A DNA stretch of 63,993 nt, filler included, from Gonapodya sp. JEL0774 (lineage: Eukaryota), in the NCBI GenBank assembly GCA_027604505.1. It is 3 parts of 3 records of this genome, joined end to end, with 100 filler letters (N's around TTAATTAATTAA, not from the genome) between each part and the next. Parts side by side here need not be neighbours in the genome. Positions count along the whole stretch, not along the records: positions 53,967 to 63,993 come from JADIIX010000396.1; 2 more parts are not named here. One strand, 5' to 3'. Positions within the stretch are counted from its first letter, which is position 1. Every line of letters begins with the position of its first letter. This document shows positions 26,990-63,993 of the stretch, piece by piece. A program made the position numbers and the translations under genes. Under the pieces are notes generated by a model. It saw only the letters and a program-made list of their open reading frames with translations, was not told where the DNA came from and made no database searches.

Positions 26990-27089
26990 NNNNNNNNNNN
27001 NNNNNNNNNNNNNNNNNNNNNNNNNNNNNNNNNTTAATTAATTAANNNNNNNNNNNNNNNNNNNNNNNNNNNNNNNNNNNNNNNNNNNN
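26990..27089. other. Artificial scaffold-joining linker N44-TTAATTAATTAA-N44
   Basis: Stop codons in all six frames flanked by equal N runs; 100 bp in total. Confidence 0.97.
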
Positions 27090-53866: not shown

Positions 53867-53966
53867 NNNNNNNNNNNNNNNNNNNNNNNNNNNNNNNNNN
53901 NNNNNNNNNNTTAATTAATTAANNNNNNNNNNNNNNNNNNNNNNNNNNNNNNNNNNNNNNNNNNNN
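53867..53966. other. Artificial scaffold-joining linker N44-TTAATTAATTAA-N44
   Basis: Same structure as 26990-27089. Confidence 0.97.
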
Positions 53967-54636
53967 TCAACGTCTGATTTTGAGCGACACTGCGCAGGGA
54001 TGGGATTGGGAGCAGTTGGATAGTTGGCGTTGATTGGAAACAATACACTGGAGTGTTTTGTTTCAGGGGGAGTGTGAAGTCTTGGATGATACCATTGGTG
54101 ACACAATAATTTGTGTACACTGGATTTGGACTCCGGAGATGATTTGGGGAAGTGGTTGGATGAGTCATCACTGTGGCCTGGTGTGGCACAGCGGGTCAAA
54201 GTACATATAAACAGCCGATTTTCCCATGTAGTGTGTGTTGTGTGAGAAAAGACAAGTTTGGAGTTCCAACACAGATTGACATACAAGCCTTTTCCCACAA
54301 TCTTTACATTCCTGAGAACAACCAAACTTGACACAGATGAGGACGTCCACTGAACTTGACAGGTTATGAGCCCAGAGCACTGAAGAGTGCTCTATCATAG
54401 GGTTATGGCCCGATCTGGCTGCCTTTCGTCGCACGCTCGTCGCACGTCGCACTTCCCTGAGGAGGAGATGGGATCTACTTCCTCTTTTTTTGAGTATAAG
54501 TTGTACAAATATGAATATGATGGTTGCATCCATAGGTTTCACCATTGATGTTGTGTTGAGCGGAACAACGAAGTTCCACTCCCTCCCTCCCAATCTCTCT
54601 CAATCCCACTCAACACACAATCAATTCGGCGCGTTC

Positions 54637-54672
54637 CGTCGCAAAGCGACAAAAACGGGTCGCTTTGCGACG
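54637..54672. repeat. Perfect 14-bp inverted repeat with an 8-bp asymmetric spacer (loxP/FRT-like geometry)
   Basis: CGTCGCAAAGCGAC-AAAAACGG-GTCGCTTTGCGACG. The repeat is certain; its function is inferred. Confidence 0.9.
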
Positions 54673-54899
54673 AAAGAGAAAGCGGATTTTTGGCAGAGGT
54701 TAGTCGCACGCCTTGTCGACGGAAACCAATTTGCTCGTCATCCCACACATCTCCGACCCTCCAGACCACGAATTTCTCGTGATCGCGTCTACGAGCGGCA
54801 CGTTTCGTGTGCAGCGCTGACCCTCCGTCTCCCTCAATCACGTGTTCGCGACGCATCATTTTGCGAGTCTGACAGCTCGCAAATCGCCAGTCTCACCGC

Positions 54900-55720
54900 T
54901 TTCATGGGTATCACGGATTGTGCTTCCCTGCAATAACCTCAAGGCGAGTTCGGGGCTGGGGGGAGAGTGGTGGGTGGACCTGGAGGGGAGTAAGACGGGG
55001 AATCCATCGGGACAAACCGGAGTCCGCGCTGGGTCGGGAGCGGCGATGGGCGCCGAGCTCGGTGTGTGCGAGGCACTGCAAAACTGAGGCAAGTGTTGGT
55101 TGTCAGGGGTACGGACTGCGTGGAAGCCATGGGTTGCAGACCCATTCGGTATACCGACAAGGTGAAGATGCTTGCGGTTGAGCGCACACTCGCCTTTTCG
55201 ACCTCGCAAAGGACCAGAAACAATGAAGTGAAATGCGTAGGCAAGTCTCTTGTGAGGCGAGTGTAGGGGGCTGGAAGTTTCATGGAGGATCCATCATTCT
55301 AACTTCTCGCAATTGTGCTCAGTATTTCGAGGACAGTGGCGCAGGTAGCACGGTGGTGACCCCTGGCATGAGAGATGCAGAAGCAAACAAGCTGTACGGA
55401 TCACAAAACGTGCGGTGCGAAGTCTGGGTGTGGAAGTTTAGTCACCCGGGTTGGAACCGCAACGTTTATCCTGGCGGAAAAGACACAATCCCCCGCGGCC
55501 CCGCCTCCTCAGAATCAGCAATGAGGGTCCTGCTAGCTCCTCCACACCCACCCCACTCTGGCTCCATCTCAAGCGTGACCTGGATGTTGACTCGACTTGT
55601 CCTACCCACCCCGGTTTGTAAATGATACAGCGTAACAGCAGCTCATGGAAAGGAATGGGGACAGGAACGGAAGCTGTGATGGGAGATGGGCCATCAGAAT
55701 TTTCATCTGCGACCTGGACC
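54900..55720 (+). pseudogene. Possible degenerate tyrosine-recombinase relic
   Basis: Fragments in different frames: GEWWVDLEGSKTGNPS (compare TWDATKKTGNPAYS in the intact YR) and TLAFSTSQRTRNNEV (Box-I-like). No clear HxxR found. Confidence 0.3.
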
Positions 55721-56071
55721 ACATTTTGTTACAGATCAGGTGTAATCGGAGAAAACATCATGTAGTTAATGTATACAATTAGCAAAGGGAAACTTATGCA
55801 ATCACTAAAAGGAGAATTTAAGAGTGTTCCGAGCATTCAGCATTCGGCCCCAAAAGCAGCGAAATCAAATATCGCGTCAAAGTCCAAATCCACGTCCGTT
55901 CGTTCAAAAGAGCCCCAGAAGGGTGTCAGATCATTAGTCAATCTCGCAGCACAGTTCCCGTTGTCTTTTAGTGTTGTGTCACATACGGTCCCCTGAGTTC
56001 GTACAACAGATTGTGCTCCCGAAACTTTAAGAAAGAGCGCAGATTAATAAAACGACACTCCGAAGCAAACC

Positions 56072-57354
56072 TTAAGCACCTACCCTGGGAGGAATACAGA
56101 AGCTGATGTTGAGATGGCGAAGGAACCTCTGGGTGCTCAGCTTTGATCGAAATTCGTCAAACTTCCTGTTCGAACGCTGCAAACAACACTCACAGCAAGC
56201 AATTGACGCGAGCATCAAACTCCGTTGCACCGTTTCTTTCCTCCACTTGTATCCCTTCCACGAACCCCTGAGATACTGGTCCACACTTTTGCCGGCTGAG
56301 TCCATCTGTGCGACACGGCGGCTTGCCTCAGTTTTGATCGCTTCAGCTTCTTCTGGTTTCAATCGGGGAAGCCACTTCTTTTTCAGTGATGTCACAAAGT
56401 TCTGAATCCGCTCCATTGGACACGCTCCGGTGCGGAAGTTGACATTCAGTCCGTGTTGGTGGAGGAAGTATTCGATCTCAACATTTGTTGGCCCCACACC
56501 CCGCTTCATTGCGACAATTTCCATGAATATTGCCGCTTCCTTCAGTTGATTTTGCTCACGGGGTTCCGGAACTCTGTAGATGGTGGAGTTTGCCGGGACG
56601 ACTGCGCGGAGCTGCTCAGATGTGAAACCGTAGGTCCATTCTCCGTTTAAATCAACCGCTCTCCAAATTTCACCAAGAGGAGCAATCCGTCCCGTGCATT
56701 GTCCCTTCTGGCGCCGGTGGTATAGAGCTGATTTCGTTCGCTCCCTGAGTGCTGATCGTTCTGACTCCGCCTGAATAGTCGCAAAGTGAATCTGAATGGA
56801 ATTGTCGAATCCATTCTTGGTAAGAGGTCCAAATGAGTAGTCAAATTGAGACGAGATGTAAAGGCCTTTGCCAGCGTCTCCCAGTCGAGTTTTCAAAGCA
56901 AAAAAGACGCCGGCATCCCGAGACACCCTGTTCAGACGGTAAACACCCACGCCAATCAGTTGACCAGTTTTTCCGTCCTCGTCCTGCACCATTTGCCGTC
57001 GTTCACGTCGCCCATTCCGATCCTCCCCGCACACAAGCCTCAAGCAGTCTTCAAGTCCAGAACGGTCCGTTTTCCCATATCCAGGTCGAGAGGCGCCACT
57101 CTTGAGGTCTTGATAGAAGGTTGAATAGACACCAAATCCTTTGACTTTGAGCTCGCGCCGAATATGGTCAAACTAGATGGCATGGGACAGTTCGTCGACC
57201 ACGATTGTGCTCAGTATAGAGCAACTCTCCGGTGGTCAAAGGTGGTCAAAGAGAAAACACTGACCTGAACCTCTATGGACACGTTTTCCTTCTTCTCCTG
57301 TGACATGCGGGCGTACATGACGACGATGGGATGGACAGTGGAGAGGGTGTTCAT
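56072..57354 (-). CDS. Serine recombinase (resolvase/invertase-family catalytic domain plus C-terminal extension), ~396 aa, with a spliceosomal intron at 57173-57264
   Basis: Exon 1 (57265-57354) MNTLSTVHPIVVMYARMSQEKKENVSIEVQ; 92-nt GTCAGT...CTAG intron; exon 2 is in frame with ORF 56072..57043: YQDLKSGASR, DRSGLEDCL, VYRLNRVSRD, QAESERSALRERTKSAL, GQCTGRIAPLG. Confidence 0.85.
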
Positions 57355-57856
57355 GGTTGCGGGTCGTTCGGGAGTCTGCAGAGTTGAAATGGGGGAGCAA
57401 AATGGCCGTCACCGAGCGTGTAGGTCACAAACTGAACGGAGAATGGAAGGAGACCATCAAAGCCCATTCAAATGGCACGTGATGGGTGTCCGTTGCCAGC
57501 GAAACAACTCCTCACCTCTTCCTGCCCAACTTGGATCGAGACCAAAATGGACTGCTACCCGCGTGAGGAATTCCCGGATGAATTTTCGGAGAATGATTTC
57601 CAGCTGCAACCGAGCGGTTGAAGTCGGAAACCGGGATGCCCTGAGACCCTCGCTCTCCATGCGTGACTGTGACACGGGTCAAGACCTGATGAGTGGGCGC
57701 TACACATTGTCTTTCATTGATGATAGAGATACGAATTTGACGGAGGTGGACACGAGTCTCGTTTGTGAGTGATTGGTGTTCGGTTTTGGGTTGGATATGT
57801 GTGTGCTCGAGTGTTCCCCTACTCCCACAGCTTGACCGTGCGAATCCGACTCCAAC

Positions 57857-59582
57857 ATGTCGTCCAAGAGATCCGCGCCCACGACACAAAAGATCGCTAA
57901 GAGCAAGCTAGAGAAACGGAAAGCGGCAGTGCTGGATGTCGACAGCGGCGGGAGTGTTCTGGAAGTGGTGGCGAGGATTCCACAGGATCTTGGAATGGTC
58001 GACTTCCGGCGGCAGCAGCTTGGGGCACAGTTTGGATATGACAATCCGAGTCGGATCCTCCCAATGACTCGTACCCTGGAGATGTTGCCGGGGGCCAAAC
58101 GGGTGCTGCCAGACGTGAACAACAAGGAGTTCAAGGATGGAGGAGGAGCACCATTGACCCGGTTCCCCGAATTGCTCGGCATAGGCGAAAACCAGATGTC
58201 GCTTATCTCCAAGCCGGGAGAGTTCAAGTCTCGGGAAGCTCTGGTAACGCTGGCCGACTCGTTGGAGACGCTTTTGCAGGGATCGAGCAACGTTCTCACG
58301 GATTCGGAGGCTGCTCGCCGAGTTATTCAGGATCTCCGGTACGACAATAGACTCAAATCTAAGCGGAAACAAGTGCTCTTATCAATGTTCTCCTTCTTAG
58401 CACCACCATTTCGAAAGGGAATGCGAGCACCGTCGCCCCGAGTCCCCCCACCGACGTTACATCTTCGCATGGTACCCATTTGCGCAGCTTTCTGGCGGAT
58501 TCTCAACATCTGCTGGCAGGTAGCTCCAATGGCCAGCTGGTAGTTCTTTCCCCTCCTACTCCCTCACCAGCACCTCGCTGGGGTAATGCCTGTTCACAGT
58601 ATGATCAATTGGTGCCTCCGATACAAATCCCAATTGAGAGCACCAGAAGCACTAGGCAATCTATGGGGGCAAGCACTTGGAACCTGACGAGCCCATGGGG
58701 CAGTGGAGACTTTCGAGTGGAAGGTGTCGCAATCTGCATACTCCGATGCCAGTCTCCACACCTTCTCCAACGCGGCATCTGCTTTCTTCTTCTTTTAATC
58801 GACCAGTCGACTCCCTGTGCTTTCACCCCCCGTCGTCACCCACTTCCCTGGGTCGCTATCATAGTCGTGGAAACGATGACGTTGACTTGGGATCTCAACT
58901 TCCACGCAGATTTCTCTCCGATGCACAAATACAGCACGGCCATCAAGCTGCTAATCTGCTTCACTCTATTACTTCACCCGATCACACCACTACCTTTGAT
59001 GTCGTCACACTGGCGGACTCTGTAGTATCTTCCCCACCGGTACCACAGTTGCAAGTCAAACCGGTGGCAACAGCCGGCTCCTCTGTTTCAATTGCGGCTA
59101 GAGCGGCACCTGCATCAGCTGGTGCACCCCGATCAGGGACTGAACTGGCGACACCAAAAATAAAGCTATACGTTCGGAAGGCCGACCTGCGCCGAGGGGA
59201 GCAGTACGCAGGTGCTGGTGGCAAGAGCGACTTTGTAACGTGGAAATGGGACGTCCGGAAACTCCAAGCTCAGTGGGAACGGGGTGAAGGGCTGACGGCA
59301 CCGGGTTTTGTGCTCATGTATCCGCCTCGCGTTCTTCATGCTGCACGTCGGGCCCAAAGGTGCAAGGAGCTGGATATTTGTGCGGCTCATGTTGACTACT
59401 TGAAGGAGTTGAACGTTCAATGCACTTCATGGGTCAAGAATCTGACGAAGTACGGGAAGCTGTACGAGGGTCTGAAACTGTGCGGATTTGATACGCTGAT
59501 CTTCCAAGAGAAATTCGGCTCAAAGTTTAATGAAGCCTTGGAGAAGGTGCAGGAGCATTTGGGCAGAATGAACAATCAGTGA
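57857..59582 (+). CDS. Hypothetical protein (probably spliced), basic N-terminus; C-terminus weakly resembles GCR1_C-like DNA-binding domains
   Basis: ORFs 57857..58543 and 58677..59582 in tandem on the + strand; NLS-like KIAKSKLEKRK; WDVRKLQAQWERGEGL...WVKNLTKYGKLY...FQEKFG. Confidence 0.5.
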
Positions 59583-59806
59583 GGGTTTGGGGCGCTGATT
59601 CCTCCGCAGCATACGCAAGTACGTTACACATACGTACAAACAAACGAACATTCAATAAATTGTGGAATTTGTTATATTACATTCTGAAATGTTTAAAAGT
59701 TAGAATACATTTACAAATGACAACCCTACGGCAAAGACAACAGTTCACAGATGATTGAGTATTGAAGAAGCAAATTTCAAGTTCATAGACCAGACTACCT
59801 CCACCT

Positions 59807-62355
59807 TCAAATTCCGTATCCACGGGTGGTAAGTGCCTGCCGAGCCCTCTTCGCAGCTGTCTCTGGAATGAAAGCCGCTTGACCACCAAAGTCCGGGTCC
59901 ACAGAGTCCCATGAATACACATACGCCGCAGGGTCAAATCCATACATACGAACTGCGGCAGTTCGGAGGTCGCCAGCATCCTTGATGTACAGATAGAAAT
60001 TGGTGGTCCTACAAACCAGCATATAAATGAAGTGACAAAACGAAGGAGATTTTTGGTAACGGGTAGAGGAGGTATTAAGACGGAGAAGCTCAAATAACTC
60101 ACGTACGGTGGCGGCTGAGCTTGTTCATAATATCGGCAGAGGTAAAGTTCGCAACTCCTTCCATTCGAGCCCTCTCAGCCAAGACAATGCCTTGTGGGCA
60201 CAATCGAGTCAAGTTGCAATGGCATGACATCAGGAAACAAAAGAAGGCCAGACACACAAGACGCACCAGTTCGGCGGCAGCTGTGCATCCTAAAATTCAC
60301 ACCTGAAACAGACCCCAAAACCTCATCATCGGGGTCCTCTTCTTCGACATCAGCAGCACCGTCGACAGTCAGATCTTCCTCGGTATCCAGATCATCCGGA
60401 AATTGATTGATTCCTTCATCTGGAGTGTACTCCTCTTCGATTTCCAAGCCACCAACAACATCCTCGTCAGCCATTCCTTCAGAGCCTGCTTCTAGTGACA
60501 CCACCTTGACAGTCCGCCTTGTAAAAGGATCGGGGACACCATTCACCACATTTGCCATTTTGACCATGGCATCTTTGAAAACCTTCTTGCTCGAGTGCTT
60601 CTCGGGGTTGAGTTTGTCAGAGGTAGATGCACGAGTATAGGAAGGGAACACCCAAGGCGAGTTGCAGTTTCGGGTAAGGGCCAGAAACTGTGTAAACTGA
60701 GTGGAGGGGCACAGCTCAGGGAGAACACCAAGGTTGAAGTGAACAATCTTCTCGTAGTCTTGATGAGAGAAAAAGAGACCCGGAGCGGTGAGAAGTTTAC
60801 ATGACTTTCAAATAACGATACTTACATCCAACTTCCGTCTTGTCACTCCCAAATCCAATGATGATATAAGAAGGTATGTCAGTTCCAGGGTACGGAGGAC
60901 CAAAGGTGAGGTTGCTTCGCTTGATGGACATGATTGCGCTTGCTCGACTCGCAGTGAAAATAGACAACAAAATCTGTGTATGAAGCCATTGAGTAACCCA
61001 TGCTGCTGAACAAAAGTGGGGAACCAACTCACAATTGTGTAATACATCGAATGCAGAATCGGACGACCAGCACGTTCCCCTTCGACGCAGTATCCATAAA
61101 ACTGAATGATGTCGTGGATGCCAATGATCGGGGCATGTCGTTCCATGCCGCCATCCGCTTGATATTCCTTTGTTAAGCGAGAAATGAGGCCCTTCGAAGG
61201 ATAATTGAGTGCGAAAGTACGCATCATATGTTAGAGCAGATGAGAATCCAGAGTGAACGGGGAATTCAAACAAGAGCAAACCTTCACTTCTGGAGAGTAC
61301 GCCGGGTTGCCTGTTTTCTTAGCTACGAAAAGAGGAACAGTTTTTGACAAAGTTCCACTTGATCAGTTCCCGCACATCAAAACAAACCAACTCACTAGCA
61401 TCCCACGTCTTCGTACCTCCAAGCATTTCGTACAGCCAGGAAACAGCCCAGCGCTCTTGTTTGGCGATAGAGAGGGACAGCCCACGCGTTGGAATACCAG
61501 CGGGGACGTTTCGGGTATCTGTGACGGCAAACGGCAGAAGAGTTACACAGGATACACAATGAAAGAGTGAGGATTAAGACTGGAGCAACACCTACTTGGC
61601 ACCCCATTTGAGAGCTCGGGTGTATTCGTAGGAATGCCAGTGTGCGCTTCGAGATACTTGCGGGAGCAATTGACCGTCATCGACACCAACATCATTGACT
61701 GTACCTCCCTGTCAAATCCTTCATCACCAATGAGCGGAACCTGAACGCCAATAACACCCCGGAGGGCTTCCATGTTGACGAGTCGGTTGCAGTATCTTGG
61801 AAGGGAGAGACACAGTTGATTGATACGTGTCACCATAATACTGAAACCATCCAAAAGTGACTTACATGTACATAGTAGAGGCCGCCTTTTTGCCTGCGAT
61901 AGATTTTGTGACCGCGTGCTGAAGTAGGGTGTCAAAATCATACAGCGGGGACGAGTCAACACCAGCTGTCGAGCTGGAAGCATGAGTCTTTAGAGCAGTA
62001 CGAAGTCTCATCAACAAGTTTCACATGAAATGTCAACGGCCCGCACGAGCAACGAACTCACTGATCCAAACGATTGTCGCAAACCTCGCTTCAAAGCCAG
62101 AGCTTGTCGAACGAGTACAGAGAGGGCGGGTGGACTCTTTTTCCGAGGTGGGGAAACGAGAGATGGGAGATCGCCAGGCTCAGAGCCAAGAACGATCACA
62201 GGAGCTGTCGCCCGAGCAGGGTGGAGCGGATGCAGTTTCTGGAAAACATCCGTCCCGAGCTCAGCGTAGGTTGATACGAGTCCCCGCGGCACGTGGTTTT
62301 GCAGCCGAGAGACTTCCTCCAATGAGGCGGAGAAATCGTAGCCACGAATCGCCAT
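59807..62355 (-). CDS. Tyrosine recombinase (Crypton-like), ~9 exons, catalytic residues intact
   Basis: Spliced: ...KKTGNPAYSPEVK|GLISRL...MYYTI|ILLSIFTASRASAIMSIKRSNL (R, 60944) ...GSDKT (K, ~60840) ...LCPSTQF...WVFP...FRMHSCRRT|G (HxxR, 60274-60285) ...LSRHRT| (H, 60108) TTNFYLYIKDA (Y, 59987). The introns checked are GT-AG and keep the frame. Confidence 0.85.
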
Positions 62356-62570
62356 GGTGTTGCTTGTCGGCGTTTGCGGTGGAGGGGGCTTGATAGGCGG
62401 AGGCAGCGAGGTAGGAACAGGACGAGCAGAGGAGGGAGCTCGATTTGTCGCAGTTTTACGCATCTGTTGAATTTTCGATGCAATATGTGACGTGCGACGA
62501 ATGCTATTACATACGTGGGGGGATGGGAGGGTGGGGAGTGGCTTTGGTCCTGCCGTGGGACCGTGCAACA

Positions 62571-62618
62571 CTCTCCCTCTCTCCCTCTGTCTCTCTCACA
62601 CCTCTCTCTCTCTCTCTC
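62571..62618 (+). repeat. Imperfect (CT)n microsatellite
   Basis: ctctccctctctccctctgtctctctcacacctctctctctctctctc. Confidence 0.85.
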
Positions 62619-62758
62619 ATCGCACGATCGTCGCACATTCGTCGCATACATACATACTAACAAGGATTTTGGACACTTTTGGACAATCGTGGAATCGCTC
62701 TTCCCCCTCGTATTTCTCCTCTGTCACTGCAACACCATTGAAACAAACGCCTGCCATC

Positions 62759-62945
62759 ATGGCAAACAAATTCACACCCAACGATGTACTGAAATGGGTC
62801 ACTGATACGTTGACCAAAACAAAAAAATTGTCCAAGTATTGTGATTGGGCGTACGAATTTGAAAACACTTTGGAATTGACAGGAAATGTGGAACACATCA
62901 AGGGAGTCTGCCAGGCGGACAATCCTTTCATTGATATTATCTTTA
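62759..62945 (+). pseudogene. Short ORF fragment resembling a Ty1/copia Gag N-terminus, interrupted at ~62945
   Basis: LSKYCDWAYEFENTLELTGNVEHIKG resembles the Y-x2-W...L...HI.G pattern; it is followed abruptly by a purine-rich, repeat-bearing segment. Confidence 0.3.
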
Positions 62946-63218
62946 GAGGGAAAGAGGGGAAAACGTCGAAGGGCAGGGGAAACTTTCCCGGAGAGAGCGC
63001 TTTCCCGTGGTGTGGGCTGCGACCGAGTTTCCCGCTGGTTTCCTGCTGAGAATTACCCAAATGTTACCCAAAATTACCCACCAATCGTGGCTTTTTCGAC
63101 TCAAAAACCTTCAAAGAAACGCCGAAACCCAGTGTTTCAAGCAATCTTCCCATGCCGCCGTCACCTCTCCCCAATCGACGTCACCAGCGGACAAAACGGT
63201 CAAACCGAGTCTCTCCTG

Positions 63219-63993
63219 ATGTTGCTGCGGCGTCGGGGGCACTGGATGCAGCAATGAGCAAAGTGATAGGGAAATCAACTCGAGAACTGACTCGTAAACA
63301 CTATCGCTAGTGAGTTATGGGTTTCAACATTGGTGTACGCGGATGGTGTTCACCACGTTATACTGCAACCAGTGACCAGCTTCGATTCCTGCGCTTTCTC
63401 CTCAAAGACCTTGAAAAGGACTACGGAGAGAATGAAAACCTCTGGTCCCTCACTGCGGAAAGGGTGCTGGATAATCCATCAACACTCGCTGAATTCATCG
63501 ATTCCAAAATGCCAAATCACGTTGTGGCCTTCTTGATCTACCTTTGCGACCCAAATTTAGGAGGATGTATGGTGGGTTTCTCCTGAGAAGGTCGAACATT
63601 TTGCATGTTGATCCCAATTCACCACTCGTCAACAGCCTCCCTCTGCCCTCTCAGCAGAGTCTGCAATATCAAAACCGCTAACAAACGTTGGCGGCCGCTT
63701 CTGCGGTGACTGGTGTGATGAGGGCGATGGGAAAGTGGGAGGTAATGCGACATATAGCTCTGTGGTTCGTGAATGTGCGAAGGTGAGCACACTCCTGGAA
63801 ACTTTGCTCTTTGTCCACCCGTGGCTTACTTAGTATATTAAATTGAAAGGGAATTCAGGTCGCTGCGTCTGAGAAGGATTGTGAAGTTCCTATGGTGTTG
63901 GACATAATGCCATAAGTATTTGTATATGGCGCAGACTTGGTCTATGGGACATTTGGGAGTCTTGGTGAAATGGGGTGTGTTTCGTAATCATGA
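63219..63993 (+). pseudogene. Probable second, degenerate tyrosine-recombinase N-terminal region, cut by the window end
   Basis: TRELTRKHYR|...FLRFL; NIKTANKRW; GDWCDEGDGKVGGNATYSSVVRECAK|GIQ, which parallels W...GNPAYSPEVK|GLI; in-frame stops and a frameshift are present. Confidence 0.4.

Follow-up and report, generated by a model that had tools for sequence, protein, structure and literature searches.

Cryptons (CryptonF, CryptonS) are eukaryotic elements coding for a tyrosine recombinase (YR) with its R-H-R-Y residues intact, show no reverse transcriptase (RT) or DDE transposase, and sometimes bear one extra gene, such as a C48 peptidase or a Mariner fusion (PMC3212892) or Fanzor1 (PMC10711439). 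A circle intermediate has been proposed for Cryptons, and some families have no terminal direct repeats of 4-6 bp (PMC3212892). Excision as a circle is hypothesised for Cryptons and has been reported for Starships (bioRxiv 10.64898/2026.09.21.753150). The ciliate elements Tec1/Tec2 also combine two recombination enzymes in a eukaryote, a YR that probably resolves intermediates and, as the second enzyme, a DDE transposase and not a serine recombinase (SR) (PMC3212892). In the literature searched, the SRs described in eukaryotes are of the IS607/Fanzor2 type (PMC3627910, PMC10711439, PMC2715888). Here, we analysed a 63,993-nucleotide stretch of the genome of Gonapodya sp. JEL0774 (GCA_027604505.1), referred to as a whole as the window, in which a YR gene, an orphan gene and an SR gene lie between clusters of a short motif. 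A first-pass annotation of this DNA had proposed a mobile element with both recombinases. The observation was confirmed, and the interpretation is partly supported: a two-recombinase element is plausible, at one truncated locus, and the firmest new item is a spliced, integrase-like SR family in chytrids. A literature search returned no eukaryotic element with both recombinases and no Crypton with an SR, Repbase and most subscription papers being outside its scope. The YR, the orphan gene, the SR, the lox-like site and the end clusters that the annotation had named were all found, the SR with an uncertain 3' end, as follows.

54426..54452, + strand: left cluster of three TCGTCGCAC copies, two of them exact, facing inward; candidate left end (motif search and resampling)
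54637..54672, no strand: 14-8-14 palindromic site with four GTCGC cores in alternating orientation; candidate full tyrosine-recombinase site
55837..57354, - strand: spliced SR with catalytic and predicted recombinase domains; stop at 56072 with intron 1 only, or at 55837 with three introns
57857..59582, + strand: three-exon orphan gene of 526 aa with an S/P/T-rich middle; GT-AG introns at 58339-58400 and 58724-58806
59807..62355, - strand: ten-exon gene, very probably a YR of Crypton/DIRS type (spliced frame, catalytic set, Atlas neighbours, Cre-like hhalign)
62486..62500, - strand: inverted, inward-facing motif copy matching 54437-54451 in 14 of 15 bases; candidate true right end
62617..62647, + strand: right triple cluster in the same orientation as the left one (end-to-end match)

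The identity of the SR is firm, resting on a Pfam match to Resolvase (PF00239 type, E 8.5e-14), on structural matches to serine integrases and on the catalytic residues. Residues Y14, R16, S18, D52, R112 and R115 correspond to Y6, R8, S10, D36, R68 and R71 of Tn3 resolvase, and all six positions at which mutation blocks that enzyme most strongly (PMC2794168) are thus kept. The position of Tn3 resolvase D67 is occupied by N111; a change of D67 to Asn lowers cleavage by Tn3 resolvase to 0.018, yet D67 has been termed non-essential (PMC2794168). The splice structures of all genes here were modelled from sequence. In its one-intron form, the SR frame runs from an ATG at 57354 across a 92-nt intron (57264-57173) to the stop at 56072 and encodes 396 aa. 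The public model P0001 has the same 5' end and an extra splice at 56193. Were a third GT-AG intron (56083-56025) removed as well, the frame would continue to the stop at 55837, immediately ahead of an AT-rich tract, and encode 437 aa. Because these further introns are possible, the 3' end given by the first-pass annotation is uncertain. When intron 2 is left unspliced, 56160-56200 on the minus strand encodes a five-residue stretch with four cysteines, either a zinc-site remnant or chance.

We built a structure model of the SR (pLDDT 81.5) from a 23-row alignment in which 18 rows are bacterial or bacteria-like enzymes. The top seven Protein Data Bank (PDB) matches of the model were large serine integrases (Bxb1, E 7e-8). 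The model aligned to Bxb1 (9iu2) over residues 9-315 (Z 12.9, rmsd 6.3, 244 residues aligned), and to gamma-delta resolvase with Z 14.1. Residues 170-270 were modelled with a pLDDT of ~85-95 and aligned to Bxb1 up to residue 284; there was no Pfam Recombinase match to the region, and hhalign stopped at its G-x-x-P-x-G region. Since the folding alignment consists mostly of bacterial enzymes, the second domain may be biased to the integrase fold. In the model, an N-terminal catalytic domain, a long helix and a putative recombinase domain align with those of the large serine integrases Bxb1, phiC31 and TP901-1. In contrast with these integrases, the SR has 375-437 aa, spliceosomal introns and a fungal host, no att sites were identified, and no zinc-ribbon/coiled-coil domain was seen in the alignment or the model, in which the tail past residue 330 is of low confidence and uncertain splicing. 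We predict that the SR is integrase-like, with a catalytic plus a recombinase domain as in phage integrases, and not a resolvase of the Tn3 type. IS607/Fanzor2 elements and the yeast IS607-type genes likewise place an SR in a eukaryote, but theirs has an N-terminal DNA-binding domain and usually comes with TnpB/Fanzor (PMC3627910, PMC10711439, PMC2715888). No such domain precedes the catalytic domain of the present SR, in which residue 18 is the catalytic serine, and the frames scanned contained no TnpB. Because its predicted fold is that of the catalytic and recombinase domains of phage integrases, with the catalytic domain N-terminal, the SR is not of the IS607 type.

Searched against 1.84 billion representatives, the SR gave eight matches at E <= 0.001: itself, three further models of this species, which lie on three other contigs and are 34-45% identical to it, one from Obelidium, two metagenome proteins sharing a C-terminal pattern and one bacteria-like protein. 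In a 32-row tree, five long eukaryote-like rows formed one group (97/91) on long branches, which may attract each other. The tree left out P0004, P0005, P0010, P0011 and 4 of 30 bacterial loci, and because it was made without viral rows no donor of the SR can be named. P0004 and P0005 have an insertion or deletion near the position of intron 1 of P0001, suggesting a common intron position in the family. In P0003, whose 8,968-bp contig also belongs to this species and is near the candidate element in size, ~220 unrelated residues are joined to an SR part without the first strand and the serine; this model is probably two genes fused by annotation. Irrespective of the genes around it, a spliced integrase-like SR that retains every key residue and has several copies in one chytrid and a relative in a second chytrid genus would mean that this class of enzyme entered eukaryotes separately. 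A compact SR that evolved in a nucleus is also a candidate genome-editing tool.

The best viral fold matches of the SR include compact SRs of phages and of the giant viruses Pithovirus, Bodo saltans virus, Edafosvirus and Yasminevirus. In the fold search, giant-virus SRs of several viruses had 230-420 aa and a similar two-domain model. Giant viruses integrate into zoosporic fungi (PMC13533422), and the locus could be what remains of a giant virus that became endogenous, or of a virus-borne element, with its introns gained later. We consider such an origin quite improbable, given that no viral family was found among the frames scanned in the window, that no relative appeared in IMG/VR, that the YR has nine introns, and that the region is host-like in GC (0.513 versus 0.521 left of the assembly gap) and in dinucleotides. 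Both recombinase genes resemble the host in their introns and GC, and bacterial contamination was rejected on the grounds of the introns and the host-like composition.

The YR gene consists of ten exons and nine GT-AG introns of 59-94 nt, and once spliced stays open over 625 aa between the ATG at 62355 and the stop at 59807; the donor of intron 5 is weak, and the start may instead be an in-frame ATG further upstream, at 62463. The public model P0002 (622 aa) differs only in the donor of intron 8, which lies 9 nt upstream (60266). Its putative catalytic set is R323, K358, H521, R524, H554 and Y563 (or Y561). In the hhalign register, R323, K358, H521 and R524 fall on Cre R173, K201, H289 and R292, and the assignment of H554 and Y563 comes from their separation of 9 residues, as between Cre W315 and Y324, and not from alignment. 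Against a seven-sequence profile of Cre and six plasmid relatives, P0002 scored 27.9 versus 14.7 +/- 1.9 for shuffled sequences, none of 100 doing as well, over 161 columns (202 after removal of an acidic insert). This insert of ~70 aa (60300-60520, minus strand) lies within one exon just before HxxR, and may conceal the YR from profile searches. In the ESM Atlas, residues 140-622 of P0002 reached 0.96-0.97 to clusters with Phage_integrase (13-36% of members), ALOG or NDC10_II, which are eukaryotic wherever taxa are recorded; as a control, shuffled proteins reached 0.95 in 1 of 100 cases. The single-sequence model of the YR was unusable (pLDDT 32), the best PHROGs integrase match of P0002 had an E of 0.28, and tblastn found nothing in phages and only noise at E 6-10 in plasmids. 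From its sequence, the gene is very probably a divergent Crypton/DIRS-type YR, to which we assign no subfamily; the proposed identity stands at a moderate level, with the Atlas neighbours and the Cre-like alignment for it and, against it, the lack of a Pfam match and negative outcomes with three of the four profile tests that we made.

Both candidate ends are marked by GTCGC, which occurs 26.6 times per kb in 54420-54720, 1.95 times between the end motifs and 2.2 times left of the gap. Each of the four exact TCGTCGCAC copies in the 64-kb window falls at one of the ends (200 Markov resamples: null mean 0.5, maximum 4), and two triple clusters were observed versus none in 200 resamples, for a motif that was picked after the fact. 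The clusters at both extremities are real, as had been noted, but they have the same orientation and the right one may belong to a neighbouring element. The lox-like site at 54637-54672 was confirmed, with 14-bp arms that are perfectly inverted around an asymmetric spacer of 8 bp. No other such site in the window has arms of at least 11, a looser limit at which 3 of 8 resampled windows also contained one; the folding z of the confirmed site is -3.2, and none of 200 shuffles was as good. YR sites have arms of 11-13 bp and a spacer of 6-8 bp (PMC3212892), and the palindrome, which comes close to this geometry and has the GTCGC core in common with the end motifs, is likely a full tyrosine-recombinase site. 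No partner of it was found on the contig, so that simple lox-to-lox excision is unavailable.

Compared directly, the left and right triple clusters matched with a score of 32, which none of 500 shuffles equalled. The right triple cluster can be taken as a direct terminal repeat, with the direct clusters bounding one element, or as the left end of a related neighbour, the first gene of which begins at 62759; in the latter case, the present element extends from 54426 to ~62500 and has inward-facing sites. Both fit. TATGG, the CryptonS terminus, occurs at 54405 and was taken as chance, with no partner near either right end.

The same-facing clusters could be attL/attR-like ends, if the SR were the mover of a eukaryotic serine-integrase element and the YR resolved at the 14-8-14 site. 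This would agree with a fold nearest Bxb1 and phiC31 integrases over residues 9-315, with the six retained residues, with the strength of the direct end match, and with a lone internal YR-type site, the requirement of a resolution system; the Tec1/Tec2 YR, proposed to resolve intermediates in ciliates (PMC3212892), offers a precedent. Nevertheless, we regard the SR as clearly unlikely to be the mover, because no zinc-ribbon/coiled-coil domain was seen, N111 stands where its equivalent impairs cleavage by Tn3 resolvase (PMC2794168), and the end motifs have the same core as the YR-type site. The motifs could also be promoter sites of divergent genes in an immobile domesticated cluster, as a pyrimidine/G-rich tract separates two divergent genes on the right and the motifs there face away from it, the proteins are single-copy, and Crypton genes are often domesticated (PMC3212892). 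However, domesticated Crypton YRs lose catalytic residues (PMC3212892), all of which are retained here, and no confident gene lies beside the left cluster and palindrome; this makes domestication extremely unlikely.

Our preferred reading, to which we give somewhat less than an even chance, is a Crypton-like, circle-forming, YR-driven element of ~8.1 kb (54426 to ~62500) that would have acquired the SR and the orphan gene by capture. In support of it, all three genes lie within the end motifs, and both recombinase frames are open with their catalytic residues. Serine recombinases cut around a 2-bp centre. As the 8-bp spacer suits tyrosine and not serine chemistry, we infer that the YR reads the GTCGC sites: it would bind the repeated GTCGC-core sites at the element ends, cut the element out as a circle and then re-insert the circle, while the lone 14-8-14 site, which lies 200 bp in from the left end, would be used to resolve circle multimers or act as an accessory site. 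In phage integrases, the zinc-ribbon/coiled-coil part provides direction control between attP and attB. An SR without such a part would be a two-way recombinase, a helper or a passenger, and not the mover. The site array names candidate substrates for Crypton-type excision, described as hypothesised in the papers cited.

We propose that the element works like a Crypton without filing it as a member: Pfam detected no GCR1_C, the CryptonF feature, in P0002, which stops ~60 aa past the tyrosine. In addition, SRs are not among the extra genes named for Cryptons in the accessible part of PMC3212892. Consistent with the first-pass annotation, no RT, DDE or TnpB family was found among 19 frames of the contig and 28 frames scanned elsewhere in the window. 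The Atlas neighbours of the YR, with ALOG and Phage_integrase clusters among them, recall DIRS/Ngaro elements (PMC13465315), but no RT or RNase H was found among the frames scanned on the contig (to 63993). In Starships, a YR reads inward from one end with other genes behind it, which resembles the arrangement here. Unlike Starships, however, the locus is small, and P0002 gave no match to DUF3435, the family of the Starship captain recombinase.

Several results weigh against a Crypton-like element. The strongest end-to-end match is direct and not inverted, and the inverted 15-mer match was equalled by 15 of 500 shuffles (p ~0.03). No terminal direct repeat of 4-6 bp was found above chance, with four shared words of at least 5 bases versus a null mean of 2.6 (P 0.25), and the size of ~8 kb exceeds the Crypton range of 0.35-6.0 kb (PMC3212892 supplement). 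P0002 had no Pfam match to GCR1_C, NDC10_II, DUF3504, DUF3435 or Phage_integrase, and NCBIfam was silent; it was also missed by a broad YR profile (17.6 versus 13.7 +/- 2.7) and by two HMMER YR profiles (ranks 9 and 14 among ~300 decoys). Protein searches by word index recovered nothing beyond the models of this locus itself, and no YR relative came from IMG/VR or metagenome scans with P0002. P0001 and P0002 are each single-member clusters at 90% identity, and no related locus was found in IMG/VR (queries P0002, A2, P0009 and A6) or in metagenomes (P0002). As no second copy or flanked relative was found in these searches, the co-occurrence of YR, orphan gene and SR rests on one locus. A locus-scan match with P0008 (L001) was spurious, being inside an unrelated bacterial signalling gene.

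Finally, the SR paralogues on three other contigs fit an independent SR family equally well. With their 34-45% identity and the further relative in Obelidium, they bring in chance nesting, in which an independent SR unit, with or without the orphan gene, was inserted into a Crypton-like element or next to it, at a mobile-DNA hot spot. Such nesting is possible but doubtful. The contig carries only non-housekeeping genes and breaks on both sides, and ~1 kb of unexplained DNA adjoins the SR, as nesting would have it. On the other hand, no internal repeat or boundary was observed around the SR, the three frames are intact although nested insertions often disrupt something, and motif arrays surround all three genes.

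If the SR does travel with the YR, as in our preferred Crypton-like element, the prokaryotic elements with two recombinases would have a eukaryotic counterpart in this locus. A stronger proposal, a class of eukaryotic elements that needs both chemistries, in which a compact chytrid-clade serine integrase and a Crypton-type YR share the work, one moving and the other resolving at the 14-8-14 site, appears rather unlikely to us. If it were true, the class would include all four SR loci of this species, as members that have diverged.

The remaining features of the region are listed below.

53867..53966, no strand: assembly gap with N runs; everything rightward is one 10,027-bp contig ending with the window
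54701..54709, + strand: further TCGTCGCAC motif copy with one mismatch (motif search)
54730..55750, no strand: ~1 kb without a confident gene; several overlapping frames score alike in the codon model, with no Pfam match (3 frames) and no Rfam match
62759..63993, + strand: further spliced gene, divergent from the YR and reading toward the contig end (codon model; strong donors at 63310 and 63783)

The region under study occupies its own contig (53967-63993) behind the gap, is cut on the right 1.3 kb past the candidate element, and ends inside a further gene. Left of the gap are ordinary fungal genes, namely ATG9, IML1, SMC and an APC3-like TPR gene, and their linkage to the two-recombinase region is a scaffold join. 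The ~8 kb said to be free of housekeeping genes is so on the 10-kb contig, which is broken at both sides; because the region is a separate contig behind the gap, the statement extends over 10 kb only. Twelve bases between two N runs (53911-53922, TTAATTAATTAA at 53911) recur at 27034-27045, and are likely an assembly linker and not genome sequence.

The orphan gene had no significant Pfam, NCBIfam or PHROGs family (best PHROG E 0.011, an unnamed family), and its best Atlas value was 0.79. A GCR1_C-like reading of its tail and of the N-terminal part of P0003 was dropped, as there was no Pfam match, the Atlas value was 0.79 and 765 of 1000 shuffles were as good pairwise. The right-hand gene was rejected as a second YR, since a likeness to the YR N-terminus seen by eye failed the tests (44 of 60 shuffles as good); it may belong to a second, related element. 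In this gene, a GT at 63567 and an AG at 63654, chosen by eye, keep the frame of the tested junction, itself one base off the canonical site. Short tandem ATTACCCA-like repeats are present at 63052-63085, within its probable first intron.

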